From: Candidatus Doudnabacteria bacterium RIFCSPHIGHO2_01_FULL_46_14
GTDB lineage: Bacteria > Patescibacteriota > Doudnabacteria > UBA920 > 2-01-FULL-46-14
Length of the DNA: 64,000 bases
Assembly (NCBI GenBank): GCA_001779925.1
Contig: MFEK01000007.1
Coordinates: 4,108-68,107, forward strand
Direction of reading: 5' to 3'
The notes below the pieces were generated by a model. It was not told where the DNA came from. It was given only the letters and a program-made list of their open reading frames with translations, and made no database searches. Position 1 is the first letter of the stretch; every line of letters begins with the position of its first letter. The position numbers were made by a program, and so were the translations under genes. Below are positions 9,824 to 61,864 of the stretch, one piece after another.

Positions 9824-9929
9824 TTGTTTGTATTTTTTACCCCGTTAGAAATCCACGTTAATAATTGAACTCTTAAAATTATTCTTAAAATAAACTACAT
9901 TCCCGCTCAAGAAAGATCGACATAGATTT

Positions 9930-10208
9930 CTAACTGGGTAAATTCAATTTTATGCCGGGATATTTGGCGAAAACCGGATTCAAAATATTTTTTACGATCG
10001 CGCCGGAGAGCGCGATGTATTCGTCAACGAGTTTCTGAAGAATCGCCTGAGCATTATTTTCATCAATGCTGAGAACCTCTCCCTTGTCGCTGAGCTTCAA
10101 GCCCGCGACGTTTGTTGCTTTGCGAATGGCAATCTCCGGACCGAGAATATCCATTTGTTTGCTGATAATCTCCTCAATGAGTTTTTTGTAATCCTGGTCG
10201 ATAGCCAT
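9930..10208 (-). CDS. Hypothetical protein, likely co-transcribed with the response regulator
   Basis: 92 aa immediately downstream of the 10209..10613 gene. Confidence 0.3.
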   Translation of the reverse strand: MAIDQDYKKLIEEIISKQMDILGPEIAIRKATNVAGLKLSDKGEVLSIDENNAQAILQKLVDEYIALSGAIVKNILNPVFAKYPGIKLNLPS

Positions 10209-16964: not shown

Positions 16965-18059
16965 ATGGACGACAAAATCCGGCTAGGACTCACCTTTGAT
17001 GACGTACTTTTAGAGCCCAGAGAATCTGGGGTGGTGAGAGACGGTGTCCGGCTCGAAACAAAACTCACAAAGAAAATAAGATTACAAATTCCGATTCTTT
17101 CCGCAGCCATGGATACGGTATCTGAAACCGCCATGGCTGTTTCGTTGGGTAAATTGGGCGGCATGGCTGTCATCCACCGCAATTGTTCCATTGAGGCCCA
17201 GGTTAAAATGGTTCGAGACGCCAAAAAACATGACGTTCTTGTGGGCGCTGCTGTTGGCTCTTATGATCTCGAGCGGGCCAAGGCCCTCGACAAAGCTGGC
17301 GCGGATGTAATCGTGGTAGACACAGCTCACGCGCATAATTTGCAAACTATCGCAGGCGCAAAACAAATTAAAAAATCAATTCGAGCAGAGCTGATCGTCG
17401 GCAATATCGCCACCAGCGAGGCGGCCTCGGAACTAGTCAAATTTGCTGATGCCATCAAGGTCGGCATTGGCCCTGGCTCCATCTGCACCACACGCGTGGT
17501 GGCCGGCATTGGCGTTCCCCAACTCACCGCGATTTTGGATGTGGTAAAAATCGCGAACAAAAAAAATATTCCGGTGATTGCTGACGGTGGTATGAAATAT
17601 TCCGGAGACATTGTGAAGGCTCTTGCCGCTGGCGCTTCTACTGTAATGCTTGGTTCTATGCTAGCGGGTACAAAAGAGGCGCCGGGGCAAGTCGTTAAAA
17701 TTGACGGGAAAGAATTCAAATCCTACCGCGGCATGGGCTCTCTCGGTGTAATGCACGGCGGTAAATCTTCTGATAGATATTTTCAAAAGAACCCCCTCTT
17801 CATCTCCCCCTTATTAAGGGGGAGAAAGAGTGGGGGTTATGTGCCGGAAGGCGTGGAGGCCGTGACGCTTTACAAAGGAGAATTACAAGACGTAATTTTC
17901 CAGATTACCGGAGGCCTTGCAAGCGGCATGGGCTACATTGGCGCGCGCACCATTGCCTATATGCCAAAAAGGGCCAAATTCATACGGATAACAAACGCTG
18001 GTCTCAAAGAGTCTCACCCCCATTCTATAACAATAATTAAGCGTTCACCCAATTATTAA
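16965..18059 (+). CDS. guaB: IMP dehydrogenase/GMP reductase family enzyme (short form lacking the CBS subdomain), with a small in-frame repeat insertion
   Basis: [11 protein letters not shown] catalytic loop, ...SSDRYFQ...GYVPEGVE. A 15-aa insertion ([15 protein letters not shown]) is encoded by the palindromic element at 17792-17837. Confidence 0.75.
17792..17837. repeat. GC-rich palindromic hairpin element inside guaB, in frame
   Basis: accccctcttcatctcccccttattaagggggagaaagagtgggggt. Confidence 0.75.
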
Positions 18060-18065
18060 TGAAAA

Positions 18066-18150
18066 ATGTAAATATCAAAGATCAAAGTGACAGTGTAAAA
18101 TTTTAAAATTTTTAATTGTCATTTTCCATTTTGATTTTTCAATTTTAAAT
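18066..18150. repeat. AT-rich palindromic intergenic element, copy 1
   Basis: aatgtaaatatcaaa...tgacagtgtaaaattttaaaatttttaattgtcatttt; a second copy lies at 48400-48480. Confidence 0.7.
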
Positions 18151-18158
18151 TTACTCAA

Positions 18159-19151
18159 TTGCCCAAAATCACCAAAACCCAACGAGCAGAGCTTCATACC
18201 CATCTTGGCGCGGCTGTGGATCCGCCGATTCTCTGGTCAATCGCCCACCGCCAAGGCATCAAACTCCCAACAAAAAACTATTGGGATTTTGAAGACATGA
18301 TCACGATTGATCCAAACGAGAAAAACCGGAACGTAGGCGAGCTGGATAAAAATTTCTACCATTGGACCGAGCTTATTCAGTCTTCTCCCGAAGCCGTGGA
18401 AGAATCTGTGAAAAGCATTATCGGCGGCGGCTACCGTAAAAACAACCTGGTGCTTCAGGAGCTTCGGTTCAACCCTATGAAACGAAACCGCGGCGGTGAA
18501 CGCGATCTGGACCATATCATCATGTCCGCGATCTGGGGTCTAGACAAGGCTCTCCTCGAATACCCGCACGTGAAAGCCGGCATCATTCTGATGATGGGCC
18601 GCACCCTTACCTTAAAACAAAACGAGATCATTCTGCACAAAGCCATTAAATACAAAAATGAAGGCGTCATCGGTATCGATATTGCTGATCCTCAAGTCAA
18701 ATCATTCTCTATGAAAGAACACGCTAGACTTTTCCAAAAAGCCAAAGCAGCCGGCCTCGGTCTCACTATACACACTGGCGAAGAGGGCGATCTTGAGGAA
18801 ATGCGTTATGTGGTAAAAGAAATCAAGCCGCATCGAATCGGCCACGGCGTGATGGCTGCGCGCGACCCTCAACTCATGCGGGAAATTGCCAAAAATAAAA
18901 TCGTCTTGGAAATTTGCCCAACCTCAAATCTGCGCAACAGCGTAGTCAAAAACGTTGGGGAGCTCAAAAAAATAATCAGGGATCTAAAAAAACACAAAGT
19001 CCGATTTACCATCAACACAGACGGCCCGGAAATGTATCGTACCAATATTCATAAAGAACAAGAATTTCTGATTAAAAATAAAATCCTAAGCCCCAAAGAG
19101 GTGGCCCAGTGTACCAAATGGGCATTTGAAGCATCGTTCATAAAAAATTGA
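18159..19151 (+). CDS. add: Adenosine/adenine deaminase family protein
   Basis: ELHTHLGAAV, IHTGEEGD, TINTDGPEMY, the amidohydrolase metal-ligand pattern of adenosine deaminases. Confidence 0.7.
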   Translation: MPKITKTQRAELHTHLGAAVDPPILWSIAHRQGIKLPTKNYWDFEDMITIDPNEKNRNVGELDKNFYHWTELIQSSPEAVEESVKSIIGGGYRKNNLVLQELRFNPMKRNRGGERDLDHIIMSAIWGLDKALLEYPHVKAGIILMMGRTLTLKQNEIILHKAIKYKNEGVIGIDIADPQVKSFSMKEHARLFQKAKAAGLGLTIHTGEEGDLEEMRYVVKEIKPHRIGHGVMAARDPQLMREIAKNKIVLEICPTSNLRNSVVKNVGELKKIIRDLKKHKVRFTINTDGPEMYRTNIHKEQEFLIKNKILSPKEVAQCTKWAFEASFIKN

Positions 19152-19270
19152 TCTAATTGCTCTAATTTCTAATTGACTAAACAATGCCACAAATCCCAAT
19201 CCCCAATTAGACATTCGCTTTTTGGGTATTATTTAGAAATTAGGTTAATTAGAATAATTATAAATTCTTT

Positions 19271-22509: not shown

Positions 22510-22556
22510 TCCCTCGAAAATTGCGTTTTAGGCGCAGTTCGAGGGAGTTGTTTTTT
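22510..22556. terminator. Bidirectional terminator hairpin
   Basis: ctccctcgaaaattgcgttttaggcgcagttcgagggag followed by a T-run. Confidence 0.65.
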
Positions 22557-23289
22557 ATTTCTTTTCGGCTTTTTCTTCGGCTTTTGTTTCTTTCTTTTCC
22601 GCTTTTTCCGCCTTGACGGATTCGGCAGAGACGCCTTCGCCTTCAACAACAGCTTCTGGTACTTTCGTAAGAGCCTCTACCGCGGCTTTTTCCGCCTCAG
22701 CAGTCGGCTGTTCGAGAGAAGCAAGTTCTTCTTCGGAACGCGGCGCCTGCACAGAGACAATCATGTCATCCGGATTGCCTAAAATTTTCACTTTATCGGA
22801 AACCTTCACGTCAGCAAGCCGGATCGTATTTTCAAAAGTTTTTAAACCCGTCAGATCAATCTCAATCTTGTGCGGCAGATCCGCAGGCAAAGCCTCTACC
22901 TCAATCTCATTGGCGACTTTGAGCAGAATCCCGCCGAGCTCTTTGACTGCCGGGGCGATGCCAATAAATTCCAACGGCACCTTGGCATGCGTTTTCTTCG
23001 TCAAATCCACCTCATAAAAATCCACGTGAATCGCTTCATCGCGCATAAAGTGCTTGGCCACGTCGTGAATCAGAACCTTGGTTTCCGTCTTGCCGTCGAT
23101 TTTCAGATTGACCAGGGTATTTTCTCCGGCTTTCCGGTAGATTTTATCAAATGCCTTGGAAGCAATCTGAAGATGCACTGATTCTTTTCCCGAACCGTAA
23201 AGAACGGCCGGGAGAATGCCCTGCTTGCGAAGTTTGATATTTTGTTTGCCCAGAACAGTGCGTGCCTGAGCTTCAATAACTAGTTCCAT
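22555..23289 (-). CDS. rplY: 50S ribosomal protein L25/general stress protein Ctc with acidic/Lys-rich C-terminal tail
   Basis: MELVIEAQARTVLGKQNIKLRKQGILPAVLYG..., the L25 fold signature. Confidence 0.8.
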   Translation of the reverse strand: MELVIEAQARTVLGKQNIKLRKQGILPAVLYGSGKESVHLQIASKAFDKIYRKAGENTLVNLKIDGKTETKVLIHDVAKHFMRDEAIHVDFYEVDLTKKTHAKVPLEFIGIAPAVKELGGILLKVANEIEVEALPADLPHKIEIDLTGLKTFENTIRLADVKVSDKVKILGNPDDMIVSVQAPRSEEELASLEQPTAEAEKAAVEALTKVPEAVVEGEGVSAESVKAEKAEKKETKAEEKAEKK

Positions 23290-23293
23290 AAGC

Positions 23294-23440
23294 TTTACGA
23301 ATTACTAATGAGTACGAATATACGAATTCGTACATTCGTAATTGATTCGTTATTCGTAAAACAAATAATAGCAAATAAAAAACCCGCAGTCAAGGGGCGG
23401 ATTTGTAAATTCGTATTGATTAGTAATTCGCAGGGATCAG
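23294..23440. repeat. TACGAAT-heptamer palindromic element (family B), empty copy plus partial extra arm
   Basis: ttacgaattactaatgagtacgaatatacgaattcgtacattcgtaattgattcgttattcgtaaa; arms are reverse complements of each other. Confidence 0.8.
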
Positions 23441-26799: not shown

Positions 26800-26886
26800 A
26801 GCTACGAACTACGAATTTTTTACGAAAATACGAAAAAGAACTGATTTGTTCGTAATTTCGTAGCCTTATTTCGTAATTTCGTAGCC
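26800..26886. repeat. TACGAAT-heptamer palindromic element (family B), empty copy directly upstream of dnaE
   Basis: gctacgaactacgaattttttacgaaaatacgaaaaa...gttcgtaatttcgtagcc (right arm duplicated). Confidence 0.8.
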
Positions 26887-26887
26887 T

Positions 26888-33911: not shown

Positions 33912-34862
33912 ATGAAGTTGCCAAAGCTCATCATCATAACCGGACCCACCGCCTCCGGAAAGACTGCCTTGTCTTTAAAATTGGCCAAAAAAATTCACGG
34001 CGAAATAATCTCAGCTGACAGCCGGCAAATCTATCGCGGCATGGACATCGGGACGGCAAAACCGTCCCGAGATCAAAGATCAAAAATCAAAGATCAAAAT
34101 TTTTATTCCAAAGGGATTCGCCACCACCTCATTGATATTCGTAATCCTGATCAGCCCTATACTCTGGCTGAGTTCAAACGCGATGCCATAAAAGCGATAA
34201 ATACCATTGCGAAACGCGGCCGCGTCCCCTTTCTGGTCGGCGGCACAGCTCTCTACATCTGGGCTATTCTGGAAAATCCGGAAATACCCGAGGTTAAACC
34301 GAATAGCAAATTTAGAAATCTGCTTGAACGACAGTTACAGCGACACGGCGTTCAATACCTCTACAAAAAACTAATTCTAAAAGACCCCGAAGCCGCCTGC
34401 ATCATTGATCCAAAAAATCCCCGCAGAATCATCCGCGCTCTGGAAATAATGCACGCTACAGGCAAACCGTTTTCGGATTCTCGAAAAAAAGGAGCATCGC
34501 TCTTTGATTGCATGGTTTTGGGAATGAAACTGCCGCCCGCAAAATTGAAAAAAATAATCAAGCTTCGCGCAGCCCAGCAGTTACGCTCCAATCTCATTTC
34601 CGAAGTCCGAAGATTAACTAAAAAATATGGCATACAAAGGCAAGCCTTTGATGCTATAGGCTACCGCGAAATAATTTCTCATTTGAATGGGCAAATTTCC
34701 AAAGCCGAAGCTCTAAAACAAATCCAAAACAACACCTGGCATTTTGCTGGCCGCCAGATGACCTGGTTTAAAAAACTACCGATTGAGTGGATCAAAAATT
34801 ACAAGCAGGCTGAAACGAAAATCAAAACGCATTTATTCCTCCCCCTTGAAGGGGGAGGTTAG
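33912..34862 (+). CDS. miaA: tRNA dimethylallyltransferase
   Basis: P-loop GPTASGKT, DSRQIYRGMDIGTAKP. The last 9 codons and stop lie in a palindromic element. Confidence 0.85.
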   Translation: MKLPKLIIITGPTASGKTALSLKLAKKIHGEIISADSRQIYRGMDIGTAKPSRDQRSKIKDQNFYSKGIRHHLIDIRNPDQPYTLAEFKRDAIKAINTIAKRGRVPFLVGGTALYIWAILENPEIPEVKPNSKFRNLLERQLQRHGVQYLYKKLILKDPEAACIIDPKNPRRIIRALEIMHATGKPFSDSRKKGASLFDCMVLGMKLPPAKLKKIIKLRAAQQLRSNLISEVRRLTKKYGIQRQAFDAIGYREIISHLNGQISKAEALKQIQNNTWHFAGRQMTWFKKLPIEWIKNYKQAETKIKTHLFLPLEGGG

Positions 34863-34924
34863 GTGGGGATGGAGAATTTAAGTACTTCACCCCTCCCTTA
34901 ATCCCTCCCCCTCAAGGGGAGGGA
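34837..34924. repeat. GC-rich palindromic hairpin elements (family A), three hairpins overlapping the miaA 3' end
   Basis: ttcctcccccttgaagggggagg...cacccctcccttaatccctccccctcaaggggaggg. Confidence 0.8.
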
Positions 34925-34932
34925 AAATTTCT

Positions 34933-38332: not shown

Positions 38333-38893
38333 AATATGACCCTATCATTGATCACTCTTATCGTAATCGGCCTGGCGGTTGGCTGGCTCATAGCCACCTA
38401 CAATGGACTCATTCGTTCCCGCAACCGCGTAGACGAAGCATGGAGCGACATCGAGGTTCAGCTCAAACGTCGCTATGACCTCATCCCTAACCTGATCTCC
38501 ACAGTCAAAGGATACGCGGCGCACGAAAGCGGGGTATTTGAAAAAGTCACCGCTGCTCGGACCGCGGCCATGAATGCTTCAAATACGCACGACAAATTGG
38601 AAAAAGAAAACATGCTTTCCGGCGCTCTCAAATCTCTGTTCGCAGTCGCAGAAAACTATCCTGACCTGAAAGCCAATCAAAATTTTCTGAGCTTGCAGAG
38701 CGATCTTACTGACACGGAAAACAAAATTCAAGCTTCCCGCCGCTTCTACAACGGCAATGTCCGTGATTACAATACTAAGATCCAAGTTTTCCCCACAAAT
38801 TTTATAGCCAGCATGCTCGGCTTCAGTGCTCGCGAATTTTTCGATATAGATGAAAAGGGAGTAGAGGGACAGGTCCCCCAAGTCAATTTCTAA
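38333..38893 (+). CDS. lemA: LemA family protein
   Basis: N-terminal TM then YNGLIRSRNRVDEAWSDIEVQLKRRYDLIPNL, the LemA signature. Confidence 0.75.
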   Translation, partial: NMTLSLITLIVIGLAVGWLIATYNGLIRSRNRVDEAWSDIEVQLKRRYDLIPNLISTVKGYAAHESGVFEKVTAARTAAMNASNTHDKLEKENMLSGALKSLFAVAENYPDLKANQNFLSLQSDLTDTENKIQASRRFYNGNVRDYNTKIQVFPTNFIASMLGFSAREFFDIDEKGVEGQVPQVNF

Positions 38894-38998
38894 TTGACCT
38901 AATTTCTACCCTTCGACAAGCTCAGGGAATAACTTATTTATTAGTTGGTGAGCCTGTCGAACCATAGGTCTATTAGAGATTAGGGTAATTAGAAATTT

Positions 38999-48399: not shown

Positions 48400-48480
48400 T
48401 CAAAATGTAAATATCAAAATGTAAAATGACAGTGTTTAAATTTTAAAATTTTTAATTGTCATTTCGATTTTTACACTTTG
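48400..48480. repeat. AT-rich palindromic intergenic element, copy 2 (upstream of recG)
   Basis: aaaatgtaaatatcaaaatgtaaaatgacagtgtttaaattttaaaatttttaattgtcatttcga. Confidence 0.7.
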
Positions 48481-50612
48481 CATTTTACATTATCATGTTA
48501 TCAATAAATGATTCTGTCTCCAAACTCCACCTTGTTAAACCTGAGCACCTTGAGGCCTTATCCAAGCTTGGCATTAAAACCGTAAAAGATTTACTGTATC
48601 ATTTTCCCCGGGACTGGCAGGATCTTTCGGAAATTAAAAAGATTTCCGAGATACGGCCAGGGGAAAAGATCAGCATCAAGGCTCGAGTTAAACATCTGAG
48701 CATTCCTGGCTTTCCTTTTCGCAGGGTCAAGATCACGGAAGCCCTGCTCGAGGATGAAACCGGAAATGTGGTCGCGATCTGGTTTAACCAGCCGTACATA
48801 AAAAATTCGCTTCGCTTGGGAAATGAATATTATTTCAGCGGCAAGGGTCAGATTTACGCCACAAAAAAACAGCAAACCCTCCAGCTGACGCATCCCACAT
48901 TTGAGATGGTACGCGAGGAAACAATTCATGTTGCCGGTCTTATCCCTGATTACCCGCTCACAGAAGGTATAACCCAAAAACAAGTCCGCTATTGGCTTAA
49001 ACAAGCTCTGGAATCTTTGCCGCAGCTCATAGAGATCCTGCCGGAAAAGTTGAAGAAAAAAATGAAGCTTATCGGGCACACGGAGGCAATAAAAAATCTA
49101 CATTTCCCTGATGATGCAGCCCATCTCAAAAAAGCAAAAAACCGCCTAGCTTTTGAGGAGTTATTTCTGTTTCAGCTGGCTTTCCAAAGCTATAAAAAAA
49201 CGTTAAAGTGCCTGCCGGCACCGGCAATCCAATTCGACAAAAATCTGGTAAGCCAATTCGTCGAGAAACTTTCGTTTCAGCTCACTGCCTCCCAGCGCCT
49301 CTCTGCCTGGGAAATCCTCAGCGACATGGCAAAGCCCCACCCTATGAACCGGCTCCTGGAAGGAGAGGTCGGCTCCGGGAAAACCGTAGTCGCCGGACTG
49401 GCTATGCTGGAAACGGCTACGGCCGGCTATCAATCGATATTGCTGGCACCGACGGAGATTTTGGCCTGGCAGCATTACCAAACCCTGGAAAAGCTTTTTG
49501 CGCATACTGGCATTAAGATTGCTTTGCAAACACGAAGTCATAAAATTGGGGAGATTAGGGAAATAAGGGAAGGCACGATCAAAATAATTGCAGGAACTCA
49601 TGCCCTTCTCCAAGAGCGGATCAGTTTCCATAAAATCGGTCTTTTAGTAATCGATGAACAGCACCGGTTTGGCATCAAACAGCGGCAAGCATTGCTTCGC
49701 GGACAAGCCGAGTTAGTTCCTCACCTATTAAGTATGACTGCGACCCCGATCCCGCGCACGCTCGCTCTGGCATTTTACGGAGACCTGGATATATCAAAGC
49801 TGAAGGAACTGCCCTCGGGAAGAAAAAAAGTCATCACGAAATTGGCATCGCCTGAGAATCGCGTGCTCGCCTACGAAGTTGTCAGAAAGGAATTGCAAAG
49901 AGGCCGACAGGCTTATGTGATCGTGCCGCTTGTCGGAGAAACAAGCGATTTATCACCCCTCCCTAACCCTCCTCCTCAAGGGGAGGGAAATACAAATGAA
50001 ACAAAATCAGTAATTACAGAGGTCGAAAAATTAAAAAAAATTTTCCCAGAATTCCAGATCGGCCTTCTTCATGGCAAAATGCCCGGCGAGGAAAAGAAAA
50101 AAATCATGCAAGTATTTTCCGCCAAAGGCGGATCCGCAACCGGCGGAAAAGCTCATAAAATAGACATTCTCGTTTCCACGACCGTGGTCGAGGTCGGCGT
50201 AGATGTTCCAAACGCCACGATTATGATCATCGAGAACGCAGAACGGTTCGGCTTGTCGCAGCTGCACCAACTACGCGGTCGGGTTGGAAGATCACACCTG
50301 CAGTCTTTGTGCGTGCTGTTCGCCGGCCTCTATTCCGAAACGACACGGCAGCGCCTGGAAGCAGTCGTGAATAGCAATGACGGATTTGAGCTTGCGGAAA
50401 TTGATTTGAAGATGCGCGGCGCCGGCGAAATACTCGGCACCAAGCAGTCCGGTTTTATTCCCTTCAAAATCGCCTCGCTCAGCGACGAAAAAACAATCGA
50501 ATCAGCAAAAAAAGAAGCCCTGGCTCTTTTGGAGCAGGACCCTGAACTTGAGAATTATCCAATGCTGATGAAAAAGGTTGCGGAGATTTCAAAAGAAGCC
50601 CATCTGGAATGA
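48456..50612 (+). CDS. recG: ATP-dependent DNA helicase RecG with small in-frame repeat insertion
   Basis: Wedge/OB N-domain, helicase motifs GSGKT, DEQHRFG, TATPIPR, QLRGRVGR. A 13-aa insertion SPLPNPPPQGEGN is encoded by the palindromic element at 49954-49988. Confidence 0.9.
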   Translation: MSFRFLHFAFYIIMLSINDSVSKLHLVKPEHLEALSKLGIKTVKDLLYHFPRDWQDLSEIKKISEIRPGEKISIKARVKHLSIPGFPFRRVKITEALLEDETGNVVAIWFNQPYIKNSLRLGNEYYFSGKGQIYATKKQQTLQLTHPTFEMVREETIHVAGLIPDYPLTEGITQKQVRYWLKQALESLPQLIEILPEKLKKKMKLIGHTEAIKNLHFPDDAAHLKKAKNRLAFEELFLFQLAFQSYKKTLKCLPAPAIQFDKNLVSQFVEKLSFQLTASQRLSAWEILSDMAKPHPMNRLLEGEVGSGKTVVAGLAMLETATAGYQSILLAPTEILAWQHYQTLEKLFAHTGIKIALQTRSHKIGEIREIREGTIKIIAGTHALLQERISFHKIGLLVIDEQHRFGIKQRQALLRGQAELVPHLLSMTATPIPRTLALAFYGDLDISKLKELPSGRKKVITKLASPENRVLAYEVVRKELQRGRQAYVIVPLVGETSDLSPLPNPPPQGEGNTNETKSVITEVEKLKKIFPEFQIGLLHGKMPGEEKKKIMQVFSAKGGSATGGKAHKIDILVSTTVVEVGVDVPNATIMIIENAERFGLSQLHQLRGRVGRSHLQSLCVLFAGLYSETTRQRLEAVVNSNDGFELAEIDLKMRGAGEILGTKQSGFIPFKIASLSDEKTIESAKKEALALLEQDPELENYPMLMKKVAEISKEAHLE
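49954..49988. repeat. GC-rich palindromic hairpin (family A) inside recG, in frame
   Basis: cacccctccctaaccctcctcctcaaggggaggg. Confidence 0.8.
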
Positions 50613-53409: not shown

Positions 53410-54333
53410 ATGAACAACATTAAGCCCAAGACACTAATAGACTTCTTAGCCAACTTCAAAGATGAGACTACCTGCCAGAGATACTTTGAGGAGGTTCGCT
53501 TCCGAAACGGCCAGTATTGCGCCCATTGTGGCCATACCACTATCTACCGCTTCAAGGACGGCAAACGCTTTCGCTGTGCCGATTGCCGCAGGGATTTCAC
53601 TATCAAAACCAATACAATCTTTGGTGAAAGCAAAATTCCCCTGCAAAAATGGTTTATAGCCATTTATCTGCTCTCTACATCTAAAAAGGGCATTTCCTCG
53701 GTTCAGCTTGCTAAACAAGTTGGCACTACCCAAAAAACGGCCTGGTTCATGGATCACCGCATAAGGGAGGCCATGAAACAAAACAAAGGCCAGCTATTCG
53801 GGACTGTGGAAGTGGACGAAACCTATATCGGCGGTAAAGAGAAAAATAAGCACTTCAATAAAAGAGCTAAAGGCACGCAAGGCCGAAGCACAGAAACTAA
53901 AACGCCAGTCATGGGTTTAATTCAGCGCGGCGGCAAAGTCAAAGCGTCTGTGTTGGAAAATGTCAGCATGAAAGTTATTGAGCAGAACATCGTTGACCAT
54001 GTAAAGCCAGGCTCAAAAATTTACACTGACGATTTCCTATCATACTCACGAATTAAAAAGCTCTACCCGCACGAAGCCGTAAAGCACGGCAAAGGTGAGT
54101 ATGTCCGGGCAGGCGGTATTCACTCAAACAGCGTGGAAAGTTTCTGGGCGATTTTCAAAAGGGGTTATCATGGCACATACCATAAAATGAGCCGGAAGCA
54201 CTTACAGAGATATGTTGATGAGTTCGTATTTCGCTTCAACGCAAAGGCAGTAGATTTTGGCGAAACCTTTAGCGATATGGTTATGAAAGTATCGGCCAGC
54301 GAAACATTGCGCTACAAGGCTCTAGTAAAGTAA
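53410..54333 (+). mobile_element. IS1595-family transposase gene (N-terminal zinc-ribbon plus DDE domain)
   Basis: FKDETTCQRYFEEVRFRNGQYCAHCGHTTIYRF...RFRCADCRRDFTIKTNTIFGESKIPLQKWFIAIYLLSTSKKGISSVQLAKQVGTTQKTAWFMDHRIREAM, the hallmark IS1595/ISXO2 N-terminus. Terminal inverted repeats not resolved. Confidence 0.8.
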
Positions 54334-55987: not shown

Positions 55988-56948
55988 AAGTCTTGTCTAC
56001 CAGTCTGGCCAGTGTTTTATTTCGCGTGATCATTTTCCCCGCTTTGAAAAGCGGAGCGTAAATTTCCCTCCCTATCCCGGCTGTCCTTGCCACAGCAGCG
56101 CTTCTTGTCAGGATCTTTGCTCCAAGAACCGAACCCTTGACTGCTTTGGTGCCGATTGCACCAACGCCGGTCATGTCTAGAATGAAAAAACTGCCTCCTT
56201 CTAAAGCGTGCAAAGCGCGCTTCCAACCGGACAATTTTTGTCCATCTAACGTTTTTCCCTTTACTGCTTCAACCAGCATTTTCGCAGGACCAATGACAGG
56301 AATGAAATCAATGCCTGTGGAAGCGATTTTTTTTAATCTCCCGCCGTCGCCTGCCTCCTCTGCTTGTTTAATTTCTTTTACGGTGCTATCAAAGCTCTCT
56401 TTCGGGATAGCTAATTTGAATTTTTCTACTACTCCCAGAGCAGTCTTTGCCAGATTTTTATAATCAGAGCCGTCTTCGACTTTATCGAGCGCCTGAGATA
56501 TCTGTGGCGCAAGAGTGCGCAGTTTTTCCAATATCTCCAGCGATTTTTCGGAAAAAGTTTTTTTCTCGCGCAGGCTTCCAAAAAAAGCCAGCGCTTCTTG
56601 GGCGAATCTTTCTGAGGCTGTATCCAGGTCTTTTGATTCAAAAACTTCTGATAGAACCCGGCCCAGCTCCTGCTCGGCGGTTTTATCAACAACTGGCTCA
56701 GCATCAGATTCGGGGTTATCTTCCACATTTTCCCTTAAACCGATTGATGCTCTCACTTCTTGAATCTTTACTTCGTCATCAGCTTCTCTCTCGTAGACTG
56801 TGGCGTCCCACGCCGCCTCTCCTTCTTCATCATCCAAAGCTTCTTCCATAGTTGTGATATGTGGTGTTGCCCGCAATTCCCGCAAACCCTCGCGGAATTG
56901 ATGGGTTTTATCGAGATCGGCCTGGTTTTCCTGAAGTCTTTCCGTCAT
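55926..56948 (-). CDS. Acidic hypothetical protein, translationally coupled to VirB4
   Basis: 340 aa; start overlaps the VirB4 stop (ATGA). Confidence 0.4.
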   Translation of the reverse strand: MTERLQENQADLDKTHQFREGLRELRATPHITTMEEALDDEEGEAAWDATVYEREADDEVKIQEVRASIGLRENVEDNPESDAEPVVDKTAEQELGRVLSEVFESKDLDTASERFAQEALAFFGSLREKKTFSEKSLEILEKLRTLAPQISQALDKVEDGSDYKNLAKTALGVVEKFKLAIPKESFDSTVKEIKQAEEAGDGGRLKKIASTGIDFIPVIGPAKMLVEAVKGKTLDGQKLSGWKRALHALEGGSFFILDMTGVGAIGTKAVKGSVLGAKILTRSAAVARTAGIGREIYAPLFKAGKMITRNKTLARLVDKTFDQFATKRRYYGNLDRRRAA

Positions 56949-58759
56949 TGCTTTTCCCCTTCCATCTCCTCTTTGGCGCGGTCGATTTCCATGCGCTGGC
57001 GGGGGTCGGTCGTGATGATCTGGTCCTCGGTGTAGGAGGCTACAATGCGGATCGCGGCGTGTTTGAGGCCGGCAAAAAAGATGCCCTCGCCAACCTCGCT
57101 CTCCAATAGCAGATATTTTTCCCCTTCAGTCAGGAAAAAGGTCTGGGCCACTGTGTCAATCGCGGCCGGCGATTGTTTTAAAAGAAGCTGGATGGACGAG
57201 TTGGTAACAATCGGCCGGCCATAGGGACTCGCCAAAAAATCTGACACGTCCTGAGTTATAGTTGTAACCCCCAAATAATATTTCCTAGCGCGTTTGACTA
57301 GCCCGAACAAAAACCTGGCAGAGTCCTCGTGCTGCATCATCCACCACGCTTCATCCACGACAAGGATGCGCTTCTTCAGAGACGAACGCACTTCATTCCA
57401 AATAAATCCGAGAACGACATAGATCGCAATCGGTCGAAGGCTATCCTCCAAATCGCGCACGGAAAAAACCACCAGCTGATTATTCATATTAATGTTGGTG
57501 GACTGGTTGAAAATTCCGGCAAACGTGCCTTCCACGTATTTGCCCAGCCGCTGGGCCAGAGATTCCGCTCCGGTTATGCCGGAAAGAACATTGACTAAAT
57601 CCTGCATGGTGGGCATTTCTTTGCCGACAAAATCACTCCCCGGAGTAATGTCGCGCGTGGCATAAGTTTCCCAGAGAGCGCGATCCAGCATGGCTTCTTC
57701 CGTGGGATCAAGCTTGCCGAGCATGAGACCCATGAGTCCCATGAGGCTGATCACGGCTGAACGCAAAATATCCTCTGGCGATTCATCCTCGATGCCCTTT
57801 GGCAGATCAAATGGATTGATGCGCGAGTTCGAGTTGAGCGACACGTTCAAGAACGACCCGCCGACCGCCTCAGCCAAATGCTTGTATTCATTTTCCGGGT
57901 CAATCGCGATCACGTCCGTGCCGAGCATCAACGAGCGTAAAATATCAAGTTTTATAGCGTACGATTTGCCGGCACCTGATTTGGCGAAAATCACAGAGTT
58001 GGCATTTTCCATTTGAAACCGGTCAAAAAGTATCAAGCTGTTATTGTGGCGGTTGATACCGTAAAGAATTCCGTCATTGGAGCTAACCTCTGCCGACACA
58101 AACGGAAAAGTCGTGGACAACGGGCCAGTATTCATATTCGCGGTTATGGCAAGCTCATCGCTGCCCAGGGGAAGCGTGGAATTGAACCCTTGCTCTGCCT
58201 GCAGAACCGCCCTTTTACTGACAATGAGCTTGGAAGATAAAAGCGATTCCACGTTTGCCGATATCTTGTCGAGACTAGCCAGATCATCAGCGTAAATCGT
58301 GTAATAAAGCGCGAAACGGAAATAACGCTCCGTGCCCTGCATCAGAGCGTCGCGCAGCTCCTCAACATCGCGATAAGCTGTTTCCAGCATCGGATCCCGC
58401 ACTGCTCCTTTCTGCTGGTTCATGGAAATGGTTGCCTGCAGCTGCCCGACTTTGTTTTTTAGTTTTTTCATGACCACGTCCGTTTCCATGGGATAAATAA
58501 ACATGGAAATATCCATGGGCTGGTCAAGGTTGATGAGCGGCGACAGCCAGTTGGAGGAGAGAAAACGCGGATAGGTCAGCACAAAAAAAGTACGCGCGTA
58601 TTTGCCTGAAACCTGGATATGCGTAGATTCGATCTGCATTGCGGAAGGCGCGATCAGATCGAGAAGCGAAGTCATGCCTTTTTTAAAGGCTTGCTCGGCC
58701 TCCAATATCTCGCGGCCGACAGCGGCTTCAGTAGATTTATTTTTGTTGAATAATTTCAT
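56945..58759 (-). CDS. virB4: VirB4/TraC/TrbE-family type IV secretion ATPase
   Basis: Walker A AKSGAGKS, Walker B/hallmark LVVDEAWWMM (DEAW), 604 aa. Confidence 0.75.
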   Translation of the reverse strand: MKLFNKNKSTEAAVGREILEAEQAFKKGMTSLLDLIAPSAMQIESTHIQVSGKYARTFFVLTYPRFLSSNWLSPLINLDQPMDISMFIYPMETDVVMKKLKNKVGQLQATISMNQQKGAVRDPMLETAYRDVEELRDALMQGTERYFRFALYYTIYADDLASLDKISANVESLLSSKLIVSKRAVLQAEQGFNSTLPLGSDELAITANMNTGPLSTTFPFVSAEVSSNDGILYGINRHNNSLILFDRFQMENANSVIFAKSGAGKSYAIKLDILRSLMLGTDVIAIDPENEYKHLAEAVGGSFLNVSLNSNSRINPFDLPKGIEDESPEDILRSAVISLMGLMGLMLGKLDPTEEAMLDRALWETYATRDITPGSDFVGKEMPTMQDLVNVLSGITGAESLAQRLGKYVEGTFAGIFNQSTNINMNNQLVVFSVRDLEDSLRPIAIYVVLGFIWNEVRSSLKKRILVVDEAWWMMQHEDSARFLFGLVKRARKYYLGVTTITQDVSDFLASPYGRPIVTNSSIQLLLKQSPAAIDTVAQTFFLTEGEKYLLLESEVGEGIFFAGLKHAAIRIVASYTEDQIITTDPRQRMEIDRAKEEMEGEKQ

Positions 58760-58762
58760 GGT

Positions 58763-58828
58763 TTTACGAATTACGAATATTTACGAATGTACGAATTCGT
58801 AAATTCGTACGATTCGTTATTCGTAAAG
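58763..58828. repeat. TACGAAT-heptamer palindromic element (family B), empty copy between virB4 and the upstream gene
   Basis: ttacgaattacgaatatttacgaatgtacgaattcgtaaattcgtacgattcgttattcgtaaa, a perfect central palindrome gtacgaattcgtac. Confidence 0.8.
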
Positions 58829-58830
58829 CT

Positions 58831-59508
58831 TTATTCATTTATCTCTATCCCCTTAATATTATCAGCGTGCAGGATGGAGGCAGAATCCAGGTTATAGGCC
58901 TGGTAAAGGAGCTCAACTAGTTCCTCCGTGGTCAGCAAAAGCGAACGCAGTCCCACACCGCCGAGCTCTGATATAACGTGATTGGTGCGCTCATCCAGCT
59001 TGGTCTTCGCGCGATGGAAATCTCCCTGAGAGGTTGCAATCTGGGAAAGCGGATTGAAAAAGGTTCTAATCCTTGACCCCCAGGTTTGTTTTACCGGCTG
59101 GGCCGAATACGGCACCACGACATAGAAATTTTTCTGCATGATATTGGCAAACTCCACAAGCTTGCCGACGTATTCGATGTACTCGGTCATTTGGATCCGC
59201 AGCAGCTCATTGGTTTGTCCAGCGGCCAGGCCTTTGAGCTTCTCCAGATAACCGCCGATGTCGAGAATGCGCGAGTGGATCAAAATCTGCAAAGGAAAAT
59301 CTATGGAGTTGAGCATGCCCTGATAAGCGCTAACTAGCGCATTTTGCTCGTCTTCCGATTTTAGAGCGAAATTCGTCGAAGACACCGCGATAACCGCGCG
59401 CAGTGAGCCGTCTTTTAGTACCAATGTGTCTTCTTTTATTTCCGCCACATTGATATATTTTTGGGTGGAATACGAGGGGCCTTTAGTTTTTGCTTTTTGC
59501 ATTTCCAT
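58831..59508 (-). CDS. Hypothetical protein of the T4SS-like operon
   Basis: 225 aa, no TM, no motif recognised. Confidence 0.35.
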   Translation of the reverse strand: MEMQKAKTKGPSYSTQKYINVAEIKEDTLVLKDGSLRAVIAVSSTNFALKSEDEQNALVSAYQGMLNSIDFPLQILIHSRILDIGGYLEKLKGLAAGQTNELLRIQMTEYIEYVGKLVEFANIMQKNFYVVVPYSAQPVKQTWGSRIRTFFNPLSQIATSQGDFHRAKTKLDERTNHVISELGGVGLRSLLLTTEELVELLYQAYNLDSASILHADNIKGIEINE

Positions 59509-59511
59509 AAT

Positions 59512-59617
59512 GGCTACGAACTACGAAATGAATACGAAAATACGAAACGAATCTTGAAAATATTGTATATAAATAAATGGATTAGCGTCATTTTTTCGTA
59601 TTTTCGTAAGGATTCGT
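59512..59617. repeat. TACGAAT-heptamer palindromic element (family B), empty copy with 45-nt AT-rich spacer
   Basis: ggctacgaactacgaaatgaatacgaaaatacgaaacgaa...tttcgtattttcgtaaggattcgtagttcgtagc. Confidence 0.8.
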
Positions 59618-60043
59618 AGTTCGTAGCAGCCGTTCTTCTTCCGCGCTCTGCGCATCCAAAATGTAAGCTAAATTTTTAAGCCGCGATGCGACTGGGGCGT
59701 CTTGTGATCCTACGGATTCCTGAACCGCGGCTTGTTGCTGCTTGTGCACTGTTATGGCGCTCCCCTGTCTTGAAAAAACGCGATACCGCGGCGCTGTCAC
59801 GAAACGCATGAGGTTGGGCAGATTGACCAGCAAGGATCGGCCGTTGAATTTATAGAAAGTTACGGGCAGGATGACCAGAAGCGTTAAAAGCATTAAAATC
59901 GCAAAAATAAAACCAACTCCGAAAATCACCCAATAGACGAGCCCCAGAATCCCGCAAAAAATCAGCATCAGAAACTGCTTGACAGTCAGGTGCGGGAGAA
60001 TCTGATCCTCAACATCTACGAATTGTGGGAGAGAATACTGCAT
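59588..60043 (-). CDS. Small two-TM membrane protein (position consistent with a VirB3/TcpE-like T4SS component)
   Basis: 151 aa, two adjacent TM helices (FLMLIFCGILGLVYWVIFGVGFIFAILMLLTLLVILP). Confidence 0.4.
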   Translation of the reverse strand: MQYSLPQFVDVEDQILPHLTVKQFLMLIFCGILGLVYWVIFGVGFIFAILMLLTLLVILPVTFYKFNGRSLLVNLPNLMRFVTAPRYRVFSRQGSAITVHKQQQAAVQESVGSQDAPVASRLKNLAYILDAQSAEEERLLRTTNPYENTKK

Positions 60044-60044
60044 A

Positions 60045-60522
60045 GGCTACGAATTACGAACGAATACGAAAAATACGAAATTATTGAGCATTGACAATTC
60101 TTTTATACGCAACCCCATTAGCAGTAAAGTTTGCCAAGATTCCTAAAGATAAATTGAAAGCTTTCAAATAACCAAGAACCTGTTCAATGTTTTTATTCGA
60201 AAAGTTTCTGCCGTTTTTTATTTCCAGTATTACCTTGTCTTCAATAAGAAAATCGAGAAAATACTTACCTATTTTAGTATCTTGGTACTTTAATTCTATA
60301 GGCACCTGCTCTTTAAACTTTAAACCGCTTCTTTTTAATTCCACATTATTTAAAGCTCTCTGGTAATGCTTTTCGAGATAGCCGCTTCCCAACTCTTTAG
60401 ATACCTTAAATAAAACACCCATTATTTGATAACTCAATTCCGGATATATTAAATCCTTTCTTTTTAGGAGGGTTTTTTGCACTTTTGTTTCGTATTTTCG
60501 TAAGTATTCGTAGTTCGTAGCC
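60045..60522 (-). mobile_element. Family B palindromic element carrying a GxxExxY gene between inverted TACGAA-repeat arms
   Basis: Left arm ggctacgaattacgaacgaatacgaaaaatacgaaa (60045-60080) and right arm tttcgtattttcgtaagtattcgtagttcgtagcc (60486-60522) are reverse complements; a tandem extra right arm lies at 60565-60600. Confidence 0.65.
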
Positions 60523-60524
60523 AA
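60081..60524 (-). CDS. GxxExxY-family protein (PD-(D/E)XK nuclease-like)
   Basis: IYPELSYQIMGVLFKVSKELGSGYLEKHYQRAL...GKYFLDFLIEDKVILEIK...LGILANF; paralog of 61430..61825. Confidence 0.75.
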   Translation of the reverse strand: MATNYEYLRKYETKVQKTLLKRKDLIYPELSYQIMGVLFKVSKELGSGYLEKHYQRALNNVELKRSGLKFKEQVPIELKYQDTKIGKYFLDFLIEDKVILEIKNGRNFSNKNIEQVLGYLKAFNLSLGILANFTANGVAYKRIVNAQ

Positions 60525-60601
60525 TTTATTATAGCATAAATTGAAAAAATAACAAAAAACCTCCTTTTCGTATTTTCGTAAGTATTCGTAGTTCGTAGCC
60601 T

Positions 60602-61390
60602 CTATAATCTCTTGAGATTCGTCCGGAAATCGGTCAGGGTCTCGAATTCCTCACGCGAAAGCTCCGTGTTTTTTTCGTGGTTCAGAAGAGCCATACCAAC
60701 CTTGAGATAGGATTTATGCAAGGGGCTTTTTTCAAACGCTAGAAGGATTTCTTCCGCAGGAATCCGTTTCGCTATCAGAGATAAGATATATTGATTTAGA
60801 TTTTCCAAAAATACATAGATGGAAGATTCGCGTCGGAGATCCTCCATAGACAGAGACGCCAGCTTGGCAAGCTCGGGAATGACAGGCTTTTGTGGAATGG
60901 CGTCAGGCCTGCGAATTGATGCTGGAATGTTGAATTTGGAATTTGGAATATCGGCTTTTGGTATTGTGGATTCTTTCTTTACCGGAAGTGGAATTTGCGG
61001 TTTGGGTTTTTCAATATTCAATATTCGAGATTCTATATTCTTTTGTGCGGGCGGAGCAGGAGGCTCGGAAATCCGCGGACGATTCATTATAGTCGGAGCG
61101 GGTGCTTGAGGCGCAGGTGGTTTTATATCAGTAACAGGCGCCCGTAACTCCCTCTCTCTACCTCTTAGATCAAGAGGGGGTTGCCCGCCTCGACTCGCTC
61201 CGGCGAGGCTGGGGGGGGCGTTATTGAAAACTTTTGACGGCAGCTTTATTGATAAAATCCGGTCAAGCTCTTTTATTTCCTGCTCAGTCATTCTGGGCAA
61301 CAAAAATAGCCATTCTTTCTTCTCGGTCATTGATAACATACTGGATGACTCGATTCTTTGTTTGATCTGAGTAAACTGTTCTGGGCTCAT
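60602..61390 (-). CDS. Proline-rich hypothetical protein
   Basis: 262 aa with a P-rich central region (PPAPPAQ, KPKPQIPLP). Confidence 0.4.
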   Translation of the reverse strand: MSPEQFTQIKQRIESSSMLSMTEKKEWLFLLPRMTEQEIKELDRILSIKLPSKVFNNAPPSLAGASRGGQPPLDLRGRERELRAPVTDIKPPAPQAPAPTIMNRPRISEPPAPPAQKNIESRILNIEKPKPQIPLPVKKESTIPKADIPNSKFNIPASIRRPDAIPQKPVIPELAKLASLSMEDLRRESSIYVFLENLNQYILSLIAKRIPAEEILLAFEKSPLHKSYLKVGMALLNHEKNTELSREEFETLTDFRTNLKRL

Positions 61391-61394
61391 CTAG

Positions 61395-61858
61395 GTTTTA
61401 CGAATAACGAATCAATACGAATGTACGAATTATAAATTCACCAGCCTCTTAAAATGTAGTTTACGTGGAGCAAAGTAGGCTAGAATGCCCAATCTTAGTT
61501 TGTTTGCATGTAAATACTGTAATACTTGATCTATATGTGCCTTGGCAAAACGATCGCCTTTCTTGATTTCCAGAATAACTTTATCCTCTATCAAAAAATC
61601 TAAAAAATTCTTACCGATGACTTGACCATTATAAATGACAGGTACACAGACCTGTTCTCGAAAATCGAGACTACTATTTTTTAGAGCTAACGCTATTGCC
61701 TTTTGATAGGTCTTCTCACTTAAACCATAACCGATTTTGTTATAAACGTCGAACAGTATTCCTGTTATTTGATAACTTAACTCAGGATAAACAATATCCT
61801 CTCTTTTCAATACGGGTTTCGTCATTCGTAAATTCGTACAATTCGTTATTCGTAAAGC
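61395..61858 (-). mobile_element. Family B palindromic element (second arm subtype) carrying a GxxExxY gene
   Basis: Left arm ttttacgaataacgaatcaatacgaatgtacgaat (61395-61432) and right arm attcgtaaattcgtacaattcgttattcgtaaa (61823-61858) are reverse complements. Confidence 0.65.
61430..61825 (-). CDS. GxxExxY-family protein (PD-(D/E)XK nuclease-like)
   Basis: VYPELSYQITGILFDVYNKIGYGLSEKTYQKAI...GKNFLDFLIEDKVILEIKKG...LGILAYF. Confidence 0.75.
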   Translation of the reverse strand: MTKPVLKREDIVYPELSYQITGILFDVYNKIGYGLSEKTYQKAIALALKNSSLDFREQVCVPVIYNGQVIGKNFLDFLIEDKVILEIKKGDRFAKAHIDQVLQYLHANKLRLGILAYFAPRKLHFKRLVNL

Positions 61859-61864
61859 TTACAA

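Follow-up and report, generated by a model that had tools for sequence, protein, structure and literature searches.

Mirrored TACGAA arms around GxxExxY nuclease genes: probable selfish cassettes at the stop/start junctions of a Doudnabacteria secretion operon

The stretch of DNA analysed here, called the window in the following, comprises 64 kb of the genome of a Candidatus Doudnabacteria bacterium (Patescibacteria, candidate phyla radiation, CPR) from Rifle groundwater, and its end (55.9-64 kb) is taken up by a type IV secretion-like operon on the minus strand. At two gene junctions of this operon lies a small gene of the GxxExxY family that is enclosed by mirrored arms built from TACGAA hexamers, and further places in the window carry such arms without a gene. 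Gene and arms constitute one evolutionary unit, which is inherited, and sometimes transferred between phyla, as a whole. Probably, these units are compact selfish cassettes in which a nuclease gene of about 395 nt lies between two arms of about 35 nt and which have gene-less derivatives, similar to the intervening sequences (IVSs) of 23S rRNA on the one hand and to REPINs (paired repetitive extragenic palindromic sequences, REPs) on the other. The cassette type is widespread and apparently undescribed: no published description of GxxExxY/PDDEXK_3 genes with such repeats, or of heptamers with IVS proteins, was found in a literature search of incomplete coverage that did not include the curated text of NCBIfam and InterPro.

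The association of gene and arms is a property of the family. With a GxxExxY alignment as query, species-representative genomes yielded 80 loci, 77 of them testable, from many classes of Patescibacteria, from Bacteroidota, from metagenome-assembled genomes labelled Gammaproteobacteria, Bdellovibrionales and Aminicenantia, and from one Pacearchaeota bin. When inverted repeats were sought between the 110 nt upstream and the 110 nt downstream of each gene and compared with shuffled sequences, mirrored arms were found at 63 of the 77 homologues (82%), but only at 2% of 101 control open reading frames (ORFs) from the same loci (Mann-Whitney p 1e-25). The build of the arms is constant over the loci, with four TACGAA-type units upstream, which are mirrored downstream at a modal spacing of 7-10-8, and the TACGAA arm lies upstream on the coding strand in all loci but two. 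Within 1.38 Mb of fetched DNA, of which about 0.95 Mb had been selected through VirB4 alone, 75 exact TACGAA arrays adjoin GxxExxY genes and about 14 lie elsewhere (10 solo, 2 gene-less pairs). Arms thus occur at GxxExxY genes elsewhere and are not confined to the operon, so that an earlier description of the window, made from its letters alone and in the following called the original prediction, holds on the points that it had itself named as decisive.

Arms and proteins have also changed together. Whole protein clades have switched all eight units jointly to TACGGA, TACTAA or TACAAA, the arm subtype follows the protein clade, and the distances of arms and proteins are correlated (Mantel r 0.32, reached in 0 of 2000 permutations). 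In some cases, conservation is higher in the arms than in the protein, and arms can be nearly identical across phyla, as in a pair of loci from Gribaldobacteria (L027) and Aminicenantia (L063), whose arms are 97% and whose proteins are 76% identical. Between the two arms of a cassette, the hexamer positions are complementary to 90-100%, whereas the central 3-nt spacer is complementary to about 10-35% only (n=7 loci), and the constraint therefore acts on the hexamers and not on overall stem stability. There is no RNA-type G:U asymmetry between the arms, as the coding strand has 47 mismatches that are compatible with G:U pairing and the antisense strand has 54. These patterns suggest that each hexamer is recognised by its sequence, symmetrically on both arms, and not that an RNA stem alone is under selection, and the obvious candidate for the reader of the hexamers would be the protein that the cassette itself encodes.

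In the window, the host operon comprises, from upstream to downstream on the minus strand, genes for proteins of 443 and 262 amino acids (aa), a PrgI-like protein (151 aa), a TraC/TrsD-like protein (225 aa), the VirB4 ATPase (604 aa) and a PT-TG protein. TACGAA or its complement TTCGTA occurs 68 times in the window, as compared to 23.6 +/- 4.9 times in dinucleotide shuffles, of which 0 of 100 reach 68; chance or composition as source of the repeats is rejected by this test. About 48 of the 68 copies lie in clusters at the loci that had been named in the original prediction (23296-23358, 26803-26883, 58765-58825, 59515-59625, 60048-60079, 60489-60519, 60567-60597, 61399-61429 and 61825-61854), and the remaining 20 or so correspond to the chance level. 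Five of the seven loci belong to a single operon, and one might thus think of local regulatory spacers of this operon, or of a compositional effect, with the nuclease genes as unrelated neighbours. This is hardly tenable, given the large excess over shuffles and the copies at 23.3 kb and 26.8 kb, and it is refuted by the same arms flanking homologues in at least 60 other genomes and by their absence from orthologous operons. Paired arms are indeed mutual reverse complements, but they are not the runs of TACGAAT/ATTCGTA heptamers as which they had been described: each arm consists of four hexamers with start-to-start spacings of 7, 10(-11) and 8, and is not a plain tandem of heptamers.

Cassette 1 (61395-61858, minus strand, 464 bp) lies between the 443-aa and the 262-aa genes. 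Its 5' arm (61825..61860, minus strand; sense sequence AAGCTTTACGAATAACGAATTGTACGAATTTACGAA) has four units, one of them degenerate, and as delimited lies 4 nt from the stop codon of the 443-aa gene (61865-67). The gene for the 131-aa GxxExxY/PD-(D/E)XK nuclease (61430..61825, minus strand) starts with an ATG inside the innermost arm unit (TACGA-ATG), and its TAA adjoins the 3' arm (61394..61430, minus strand; plus-strand sequence GGTTTTACGAATAACGAATCAATACGAATGTACGAAT), which as delimited is followed after 3 nt by the start codon of the 262-aa gene (61390). Cassette 2 (60045-60522, minus strand, 478 bp) has a proximal 5' arm at 60487..60522 (minus strand, sense sequence GGCTACGAACTACGAATACTTACGAAAATACGAAA), a GxxExxY nuclease gene of about 131 codons at 60081..60476 (minus strand) and a 3' arm at 60045..60080 (minus strand), with the start codon of the PrgI-like gene (60043) 1 nt past the arm. 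The two encoded proteins are 55% identical. While both element sizes and the presence of a GxxExxY-family gene in two copies had been given correctly, the gene length of 131-147 aa stands only at its lower end: the ORF of cassette 2 is open through the arm up to a TTG at 60524, which led to the listed 147 aa, but from the GTG at 60476 it has about 131 codons, and its conserved domain begins at residue 29 of the longer version. Upstream of cassette 2 follows, on the minus strand, a promoter-like host site (TTGTTA-16-TATAAT, 60528..60555), which is also present in the cassette-free ortholog L091 (fetched loci carry L numbers), and then a distal 5' arm (60565..60600, minus strand) that begins 1 nt past the stop of the 262-aa gene. 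This last one had been taken for a locus of paired arms; it is a solo arm that duplicates 60488-60522 in 35 of 35 positions.

Four arm pairs of the window have no gene. An abutting pair of the TTT-TACGAAT subtype (58761..58830, centre TACGAATTCGTA) lies between the TraC-like gene (stop codon TAA) and virB4 (start codon ATG), and another abutting pair of the TTT subtype (23291..23362) is separated by 1 nt from the start codon of the gene at 22555-23289, relative to which its two distinguishable ends are reversed in order; an extra degenerate arm at this locus (23396..23432, 85% complementary to 23298-23330) is located beyond a terminator-like hairpin. A pair of the GGC-TACGAA subtype (59512..59627, arms 59512-59547 and 59594-59627 with a 46-nt loop) contains the end of the PrgI-like ORF and is followed after 3 nt by the TraC-like gene, and a pair of the GGC/AGC subtype (26800..26887), the right arm of which consists of two tandem half-arms, ends 1 nt before the ATG of a 1206-aa gene (26888). 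Every copy in the window adjoins a stop and/or a start codon. By their ends, the elements fall into two subtypes. Cassette 1 and the gene-less pairs at 58761 and 23291 belong to subtype 1, (A)AGC-TTTACGAAT...ATTCGTAAA-AC(C), and cassette 2 belongs to subtype 2, GGC-TACGAA...TTCGTA-GCC, together with the solo arm and the pairs at 59512 and 26800. Either gene of the window is thus accompanied by gene-less copies that have the arm subtype of this gene, and the gene-less copies of subtype 1 retain the two distinguishable ends of the cassette and differ from it essentially by the ORF, from ATG to TAA. We infer that arm pairs without gene derive from that resident cassette which has their subtype. 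The loop of the 59512 copy was also inspected by eye for a relic of the ORF, but it has only ATGACG in common with it, which is not convincing.

The arrangement is not an assembly artefact, as independent assemblies carry the gene together with matching arm clusters: the 131-aa gene is present on 13 contigs of independent ENA, JGI and Logan assemblies, the layout is identical, and the six contigs that were read out have matching arm clusters wherever they cover those positions. The 131-aa protein matches a protein from a RIFCSPHIGHO2 bin at 100% identity. Further GxxExxY genes, or four-helix-bundle genes (see below), were not found within the window, and an Rfam search over the window matched only tRNAs, no rRNA and no other known RNA family.

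Both window ORFs are clear members of the nuclease family, with 109.6 and 107.1 bits to PF13366 (PDDEXK_3; cut-off 22, E 1e-31) and 111.1 and 106.3 bits to TIGR04256 (GxxExxY; cut-off 35, E 1e-30 to 4e-32). G34, E37, Y40, D76, E86 and K88 are invariant in 55 sequences and represent the catalytic D-E-K triad and the N-terminal GxxExxY helix. The AlphaFold model (pLDDT 92.6) has the alpha-beta-beta-beta-alpha-beta fold of restriction endonucleases, and by fold and profile the protein matches DNA nucleases, Cas4 and restriction enzymes best, in agreement with the PD-(D/E)XK relationship that had been suggested; no solved structure related by sequence and no characterised family member was found. 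Between the window copy and its L091 ortholog at the same junction, pN is 0.16 and pS 0.81, which is comparable to virB4 (0.095/0.70) and the TraC-like gene (0.21/0.78) of the host, and the nuclease gene has therefore been maintained by selection for long. The protein thus looks like an active DNA nuclease, judged from residues and predicted fold. The family is large (17,485 clusters at 50% identity among 1.8 billion representatives), and many proteins of about 265 aa in the protein library consist of two GxxExxY domains in tandem, natural fusions that suggest a dimeric working unit. In the L087-L090 lineage, the GxxExxY copy (e.g. L088 5390-5790) has a frameshift near codon 20 and may be a pseudogene. 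Two other assignments were considered and rejected: a known defence system, as PADLOC gave a weak similarity to the Cas4 core only (E about 1e-4), and carriage by phages, as there was no PHROG match and the arm pattern had 0 matches in IMG/VR viral contigs.

Comparison with relatives shows that the presence of the elements varies. A VirB4 scan of metagenomes gave 80 orthologous operons, and presence or absence differs between them at all four junctions, just as the original prediction had expected of mobile elements. Cassette 1 at the junction between the 443-aa and 262-aa genes is common to the window and L091 and absent from L087-L090, whereas cassette 2 at the junction between the 262-aa and PrgI-like genes is common to the window, L087-L090 and L143 and absent from L091, where only the host promoter is left. 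At the TraC/VirB4 junction, the window has the 70-nt palindrome, L087-L090 (VirB4 88% identical) have an ATGA stop/start overlap, which in L087 represents a clean empty site, L091 and L143 have spacers of 4-6 nt, and L092-L094 have unrelated heptamer palindromes. More distant operons contain none of these elements. As for the genes at this junction, the 225-aa gene (58831-59508), which matches the N-terminal region of VirB4/TrsD, is separate from virB4 (56945-58759), and the two overlap by ATGA in relatives, an arrangement that is conserved in these CPR operons; that the palindrome at 58763 had split virB4 was therefore rejected, as the genes are separate and overlapping in element-free relatives.

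These distributions bear on the question of who profits from the elements. In analogy to the partnership of REPs with REP-associated tyrosine transposases (RAYTs), the palindromes could be useful host elements, for example mRNA stabilisers or insulators, and the nuclease a domesticated, vertically inherited single-copy maintenance enzyme instead of the tool of an autonomous parasite. The window has indeed one gene per arm subtype with several gene-less copies, the purifying selection on the gene has lasted until synonymous sites were saturated, and the cassette 1 insertion is shared with L091. However, close relatives lack the elements at the same junctions and have direct stop/start overlaps there, so that the elements are dispensable; nearly identical arms occur in different phyla, most sampled genomes have the gene but no gene-less copies nearby, and the enzyme is not an HUH/Y1 transposase. 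Such a domestication therefore appears unlikely to us.

The cassettes lie close to their host genes and in the same sense. Neighbours are co-oriented with the cassette in 55 of 62 cases upstream and in 53 of 61 cases downstream, the outer arm edge has a median distance of 3 nt from the stop codon upstream and of 8 nt from the start codon downstream, and in 30 of 63 loci both edges are tight. Element-free orthologs have GGAG-type Shine-Dalgarno sequences before their start codons, and these are displaced by the arms. In the minimum-free-energy fold of the whole cassette, the arms are paired in an interrupted stem of about 33 bp with the host stop and start codons at its base, and the predicted hairpins of gene-less copies have a folding z of about -6. 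Paired within the polycistronic RNA, the arms would loop out the cassette and join the host stop and start codons, and the stem may be a substrate of RNase III, as in the IVS of 23S rRNA. Translational coupling and/or RNase III processing would then limit the harm that an insertion does to the operon.

It is conceivable that this RNA level is what chiefly matters, i.e. that the arms are a stem for processing or translational coupling, that the protein binds UACGAA units or cuts the stem, that the cassette is removed or tolerated like an IVS in rRNA, and that mobility at the DNA level is incidental. The sense orientation, the arms adjoining host stop and start codons, the displaced Shine-Dalgarno sequences, the cassette start codon inside the stem, the strong predicted stems and the excision of the Coxiella IVS by RNase III would all agree with that. 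Yet arm mismatches have no strand asymmetry (47 versus 54, see above), the spacers are not complementary, the best matches of the protein are DNA nucleases, Cas4 and restriction enzymes with the metal-binding D-E-K motif intact, and one gene-less copy has its ends in reverse order with respect to the gene beside it. Moreover, L088 and L093 have an internal promoter downstream of the 5' arm, and transcripts that start from it would have no 5' arm. We regard a chiefly RNA-level system as a rather doubtful, though still serious, alternative. A more far-reaching version, which we put forward only as a long shot, is that the cassettes are protein-dependent, intron-like mRNA elements: the nuclease would read the eight UACGAA/TACGAA units on the stem, excise the cassette and restore the stop/start junction, possibly with re-ligation by a host RNA ligase, and the same enzyme would drive DNA copying into new stop/start junctions. 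If so, bacteria would have a counterpart to the archaeal bulge-helix-bulge intron and its EndA endonuclease, and this counterpart would extend to the four-helix-bundle cassettes and the IVSs of 23S rRNA.

If the cassettes are selfish DNA elements, as we consider probable, how could they move? The eight hexamers would be binding sites for the cassette's own nuclease, which would probably act as a dimer or higher oligomer and would cut the DNA at or between the arms. Repair or recombination by the host could then copy the cassette, or its ORF into gene-less palindromes, and a strand transfer of the transposase type would not be involved. The centre of a gene-less palindrome (TACGAATTCGTA) would be split, and thereby protected, once it is filled.

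Several observations weigh against this interpretation or at least against simple versions of it. The cassette contains no recombinase or transposase of the DDE, HUH, serine or tyrosine type, and its sole ORF is the 131-aa PD-(D/E)XK nuclease. A target-site duplication beyond chance was not found in 46 loci, with flank matches of 0/1/2/3 nt in 30/9/5/2 cases as compared to 29/11/3.5/1.2 with shuffled pairing. The insertion sites have no common sequence, and there is no consensus target. Co-orientation with the neighbours is not significantly enriched (89% versus 84% for ordinary neighbouring genes of the same loci, p 0.21), and in this respect the cassette behaves like an operon gene and not like a randomly oriented insertion. 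At two junctions, host sequence has been replaced and not simply interrupted, and the last 12 or so codons of the PrgI-like gene are replaced by arm-encoded residues. Solo distal arms enclose host promoter or terminator regions (60523-60600 and 23362-23432 of the window, L088, L093), which makes a single cut-and-paste event inadequate as explanation. About 18% of the homologues have no detectable arms, and few gene-less copies were seen outside this genome, where small flanks were sampled. Distant homologues (about 30% identity, on plasmids) are flanked by repeats of other sequence, such as the CAGAGGAC arrays of a distant copy in Bacteroides finegoldii, and a distant copy from Fusobacteria is flanked by direct repeats. 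Finally, four-helix-bundle proteins, which are not nucleases, occupy the same arm-gene-arm design, and the encoded protein therefore may not be the mobilising enzyme.

With respect to the pair of an autonomous and a non-autonomous transposon that had been proposed originally, the inverted repeats, which extend 2-4 nt past the outermost hexamer, the gene-less derivatives and the presence/absence differences hold, but there is no target-site duplication, no transposase, and host sequence is replaced. The proposed alternative, a homing cassette, does not apply in the classical sense: no group I or II intron or intein host was found in the window, Rfam matching only tRNAs and the ORF being free-standing, and the insertion sites have no sequence in common. 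At 59588-59640, the PrgI-like ORF ends in the arm (...LLRTTNPYENTKK and stop), and the native C-terminus of L091 (LLRTGEASNKWLNEV and stop) is missing. The native PrgI DNA CTACTGCGAACTGGCGAA resembles the arm start CTGCTACGAACTACGAA and may be a pseudo-target site.

The four-helix-bundle genes just mentioned (PF05635, annotated as "23S rRNA IVS protein") provide the closest link to a known system. In the same operon, just past the end of the window, one such gene (L001 4641-5024) lies between inverted heptamers of the GGAATAT type. The host gene that follows in this region (L001 4600-5080) begins with an ATGA overlap, and its reading frame continues through the 3' arm of the four-helix-bundle cassette. 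About 13 of the 18 testable four-helix-bundle genes in the fetched loci are flanked by inverted 7-8-mer arrays (inverted-repeat z at least 4), each with a different repeat unit and all in sense orientation at operon junctions. The IVS of Coxiella 23S rRNA is considered a selfish element of unknown mobility; its S23p four-helix-bundle ORF is preceded by a tandem of three GACAGAT units, and its inverted-repeat stem is cut by RNase III (PMC4990558). The cassettes share with the IVSs of Coxiella, Leptospira, Brucella and Xanthomonas the small ORF in an inverted-repeat stem that is transcribed within a host RNA, and with that of Coxiella the tandem heptamer-like units beside the ORF, and related genomes have four-helix-bundle genes with inverted heptamer arms at the same junctions of the operon. 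In contrast to the IVSs, the cassettes reside in mRNA operons between protein-coding genes, and no rRNA was found next to GxxExxY cassettes in 16 loci. Their ORF encodes a PF13366 nuclease under purifying selection, whereas the S23p ORF of Coxiella is decaying, and their arms use one conserved hexamer in a fixed 7-10-8 array, whereas the IVS heptamers are arbitrary. By this analogy, the GxxExxY cassettes are a nuclease-bearing, mRNA-resident variant of the IVS design. The original prediction had not drawn this parallel, nor had it mentioned the sense orientation, the position at stop/start junctions or the 7-10-8 build of the arms.

Other systems resemble the cassettes in part. REP/REPIN-RAYT systems, reportedly described by Nunvar in 2010 and by Bertels and Rainey in 2011, likewise combine an enzyme gene flanked by inverted repeat copies with dispersed, intergenic, gene-less doublets that form hairpins, each gene has its own repeat subtype, and no target is duplicated. 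In case of the cassettes, however, the enzyme is a PD-(D/E)XK nuclease of about 130 aa and not an HUH/Y1 transposase related to IS200/IS605, the arms are four-unit arrays, the elements lie inside operons at stop/start junctions, and the distribution is centred on Patescibacteria and Bacteroidota. The Correia and NEMIS (Neisseria miniature insertion sequence) hairpins are substrates of RNase III, and Correia elements duplicate a TA target and lack a gene of their own. Like these and other miniature inverted-repeat transposable elements (MITEs), the gene-less copies are short palindromes that are co-transcribed with their neighbours and vary in presence between strains, but the cassette family has no duplication and has a cognate nuclease gene. 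PD-(D/E)XK homing endonucleases such as I-Ssp6803I are small nucleases linked to the spread of a selfish insertion. PDDEXK_2 has been listed as putative transposase (PMC3424549). As in these homing endonucleases and in the Rpn/PDDEXK_2 proteins, a small PD-(D/E)XK nuclease is encoded by, or linked to, a selfish insertion, but the cassettes lack a self-splicing intron, have diverse insertion sites and belong to a different Pfam family (PF13366), and the repeats flank the gene itself. In cyanobacteria (short tandemly repeated repetitive sequences, STRR), Beggiatoaceae and Bacteroidetes (TAACTGA), intergenic heptamer repeats form arrays of 7-nt units just upstream of start codons, and their patchy spread across phyla suggests horizontal transfer (PMC4679880). 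The cassette arms are likewise short-unit arrays immediately before start codons, but those heptamers are direct repeats for which no cognate gene has been described, whereas the cassette arrays are mirrored pairs tied to one protein family.

The window contains other palindromes as well. At 60920-61045, a TGGAAT/ATTCCA heptamer palindrome lies in frame within the 262-aa gene, where it codes for ...NIESRILNIEKPKPQIPLPVKKESTIPKADIPNSKFNIPAS..., and is absent from the L088 and L091 orthologs; it looks like an in-frame palindrome insertion into a variable linker, as known from the Rickettsia palindromic elements. TCTAATT/AATTTCT heptamer palindromes with loops of 60-65 nt lie between co-directional genes at 19146-19259 and 38885-38997, and in L100 and L102 this unit is found on both sides of a four-helix-bundle gene. 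Palindromes of AAAATGT/CAAAGAT-type heptamers are found at 18058-18151 and 48405-48499, and a similar unit flanks the four-helix-bundle genes of L143 and L146. These AATTTCT-type and CAAAAAT-type palindromes may be gene-less relatives of four-helix-bundle cassettes. In addition, there are two MITE-like elements (1926-2026 and 9836-9942) with ACCCCGTTAGAAAT...ATTTCTAACGGGGT terminal inverted repeats and loops of about 60 nt, as well as GC-rich palindromes (CCCCCT.../...AGGGGG) at 17790-17838 and 34836-34926; in L094 (2440-2620), a similar palindrome is nested between the two arms of a TACGAAT pair, in their loop. Immediately downstream of the secretion operon, the plus strand has an ORF for an IS1595-type transposase (53410-54333; Zn_ribbon_IS1595 and DDE_Tnp_IS1595, annotated on a matching contig).

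GxxExxY/PDDEXK_3 is a large family without known function, and the conserved arms provide a concrete biochemical hypothesis, as four TACGAA units with 7-10-8 spacing, mirrored on both sides of the gene, are a candidate DNA or RNA ligand. The finding would also join three puzzles in a single class of stop/start-junction cassettes, namely the role of the ORFs in 23S rRNA IVSs, the origin of intergenic heptamer arrays, and the many intergenic palindromes in the tiny genomes of CPR bacteria. If a nuclease that is specific for a 6-nt unit has indeed switched this unit several times (TACGAA, TACGGA, TACTAA, TACAAA), the family would constitute a natural series for the evolution of recognition specificity.

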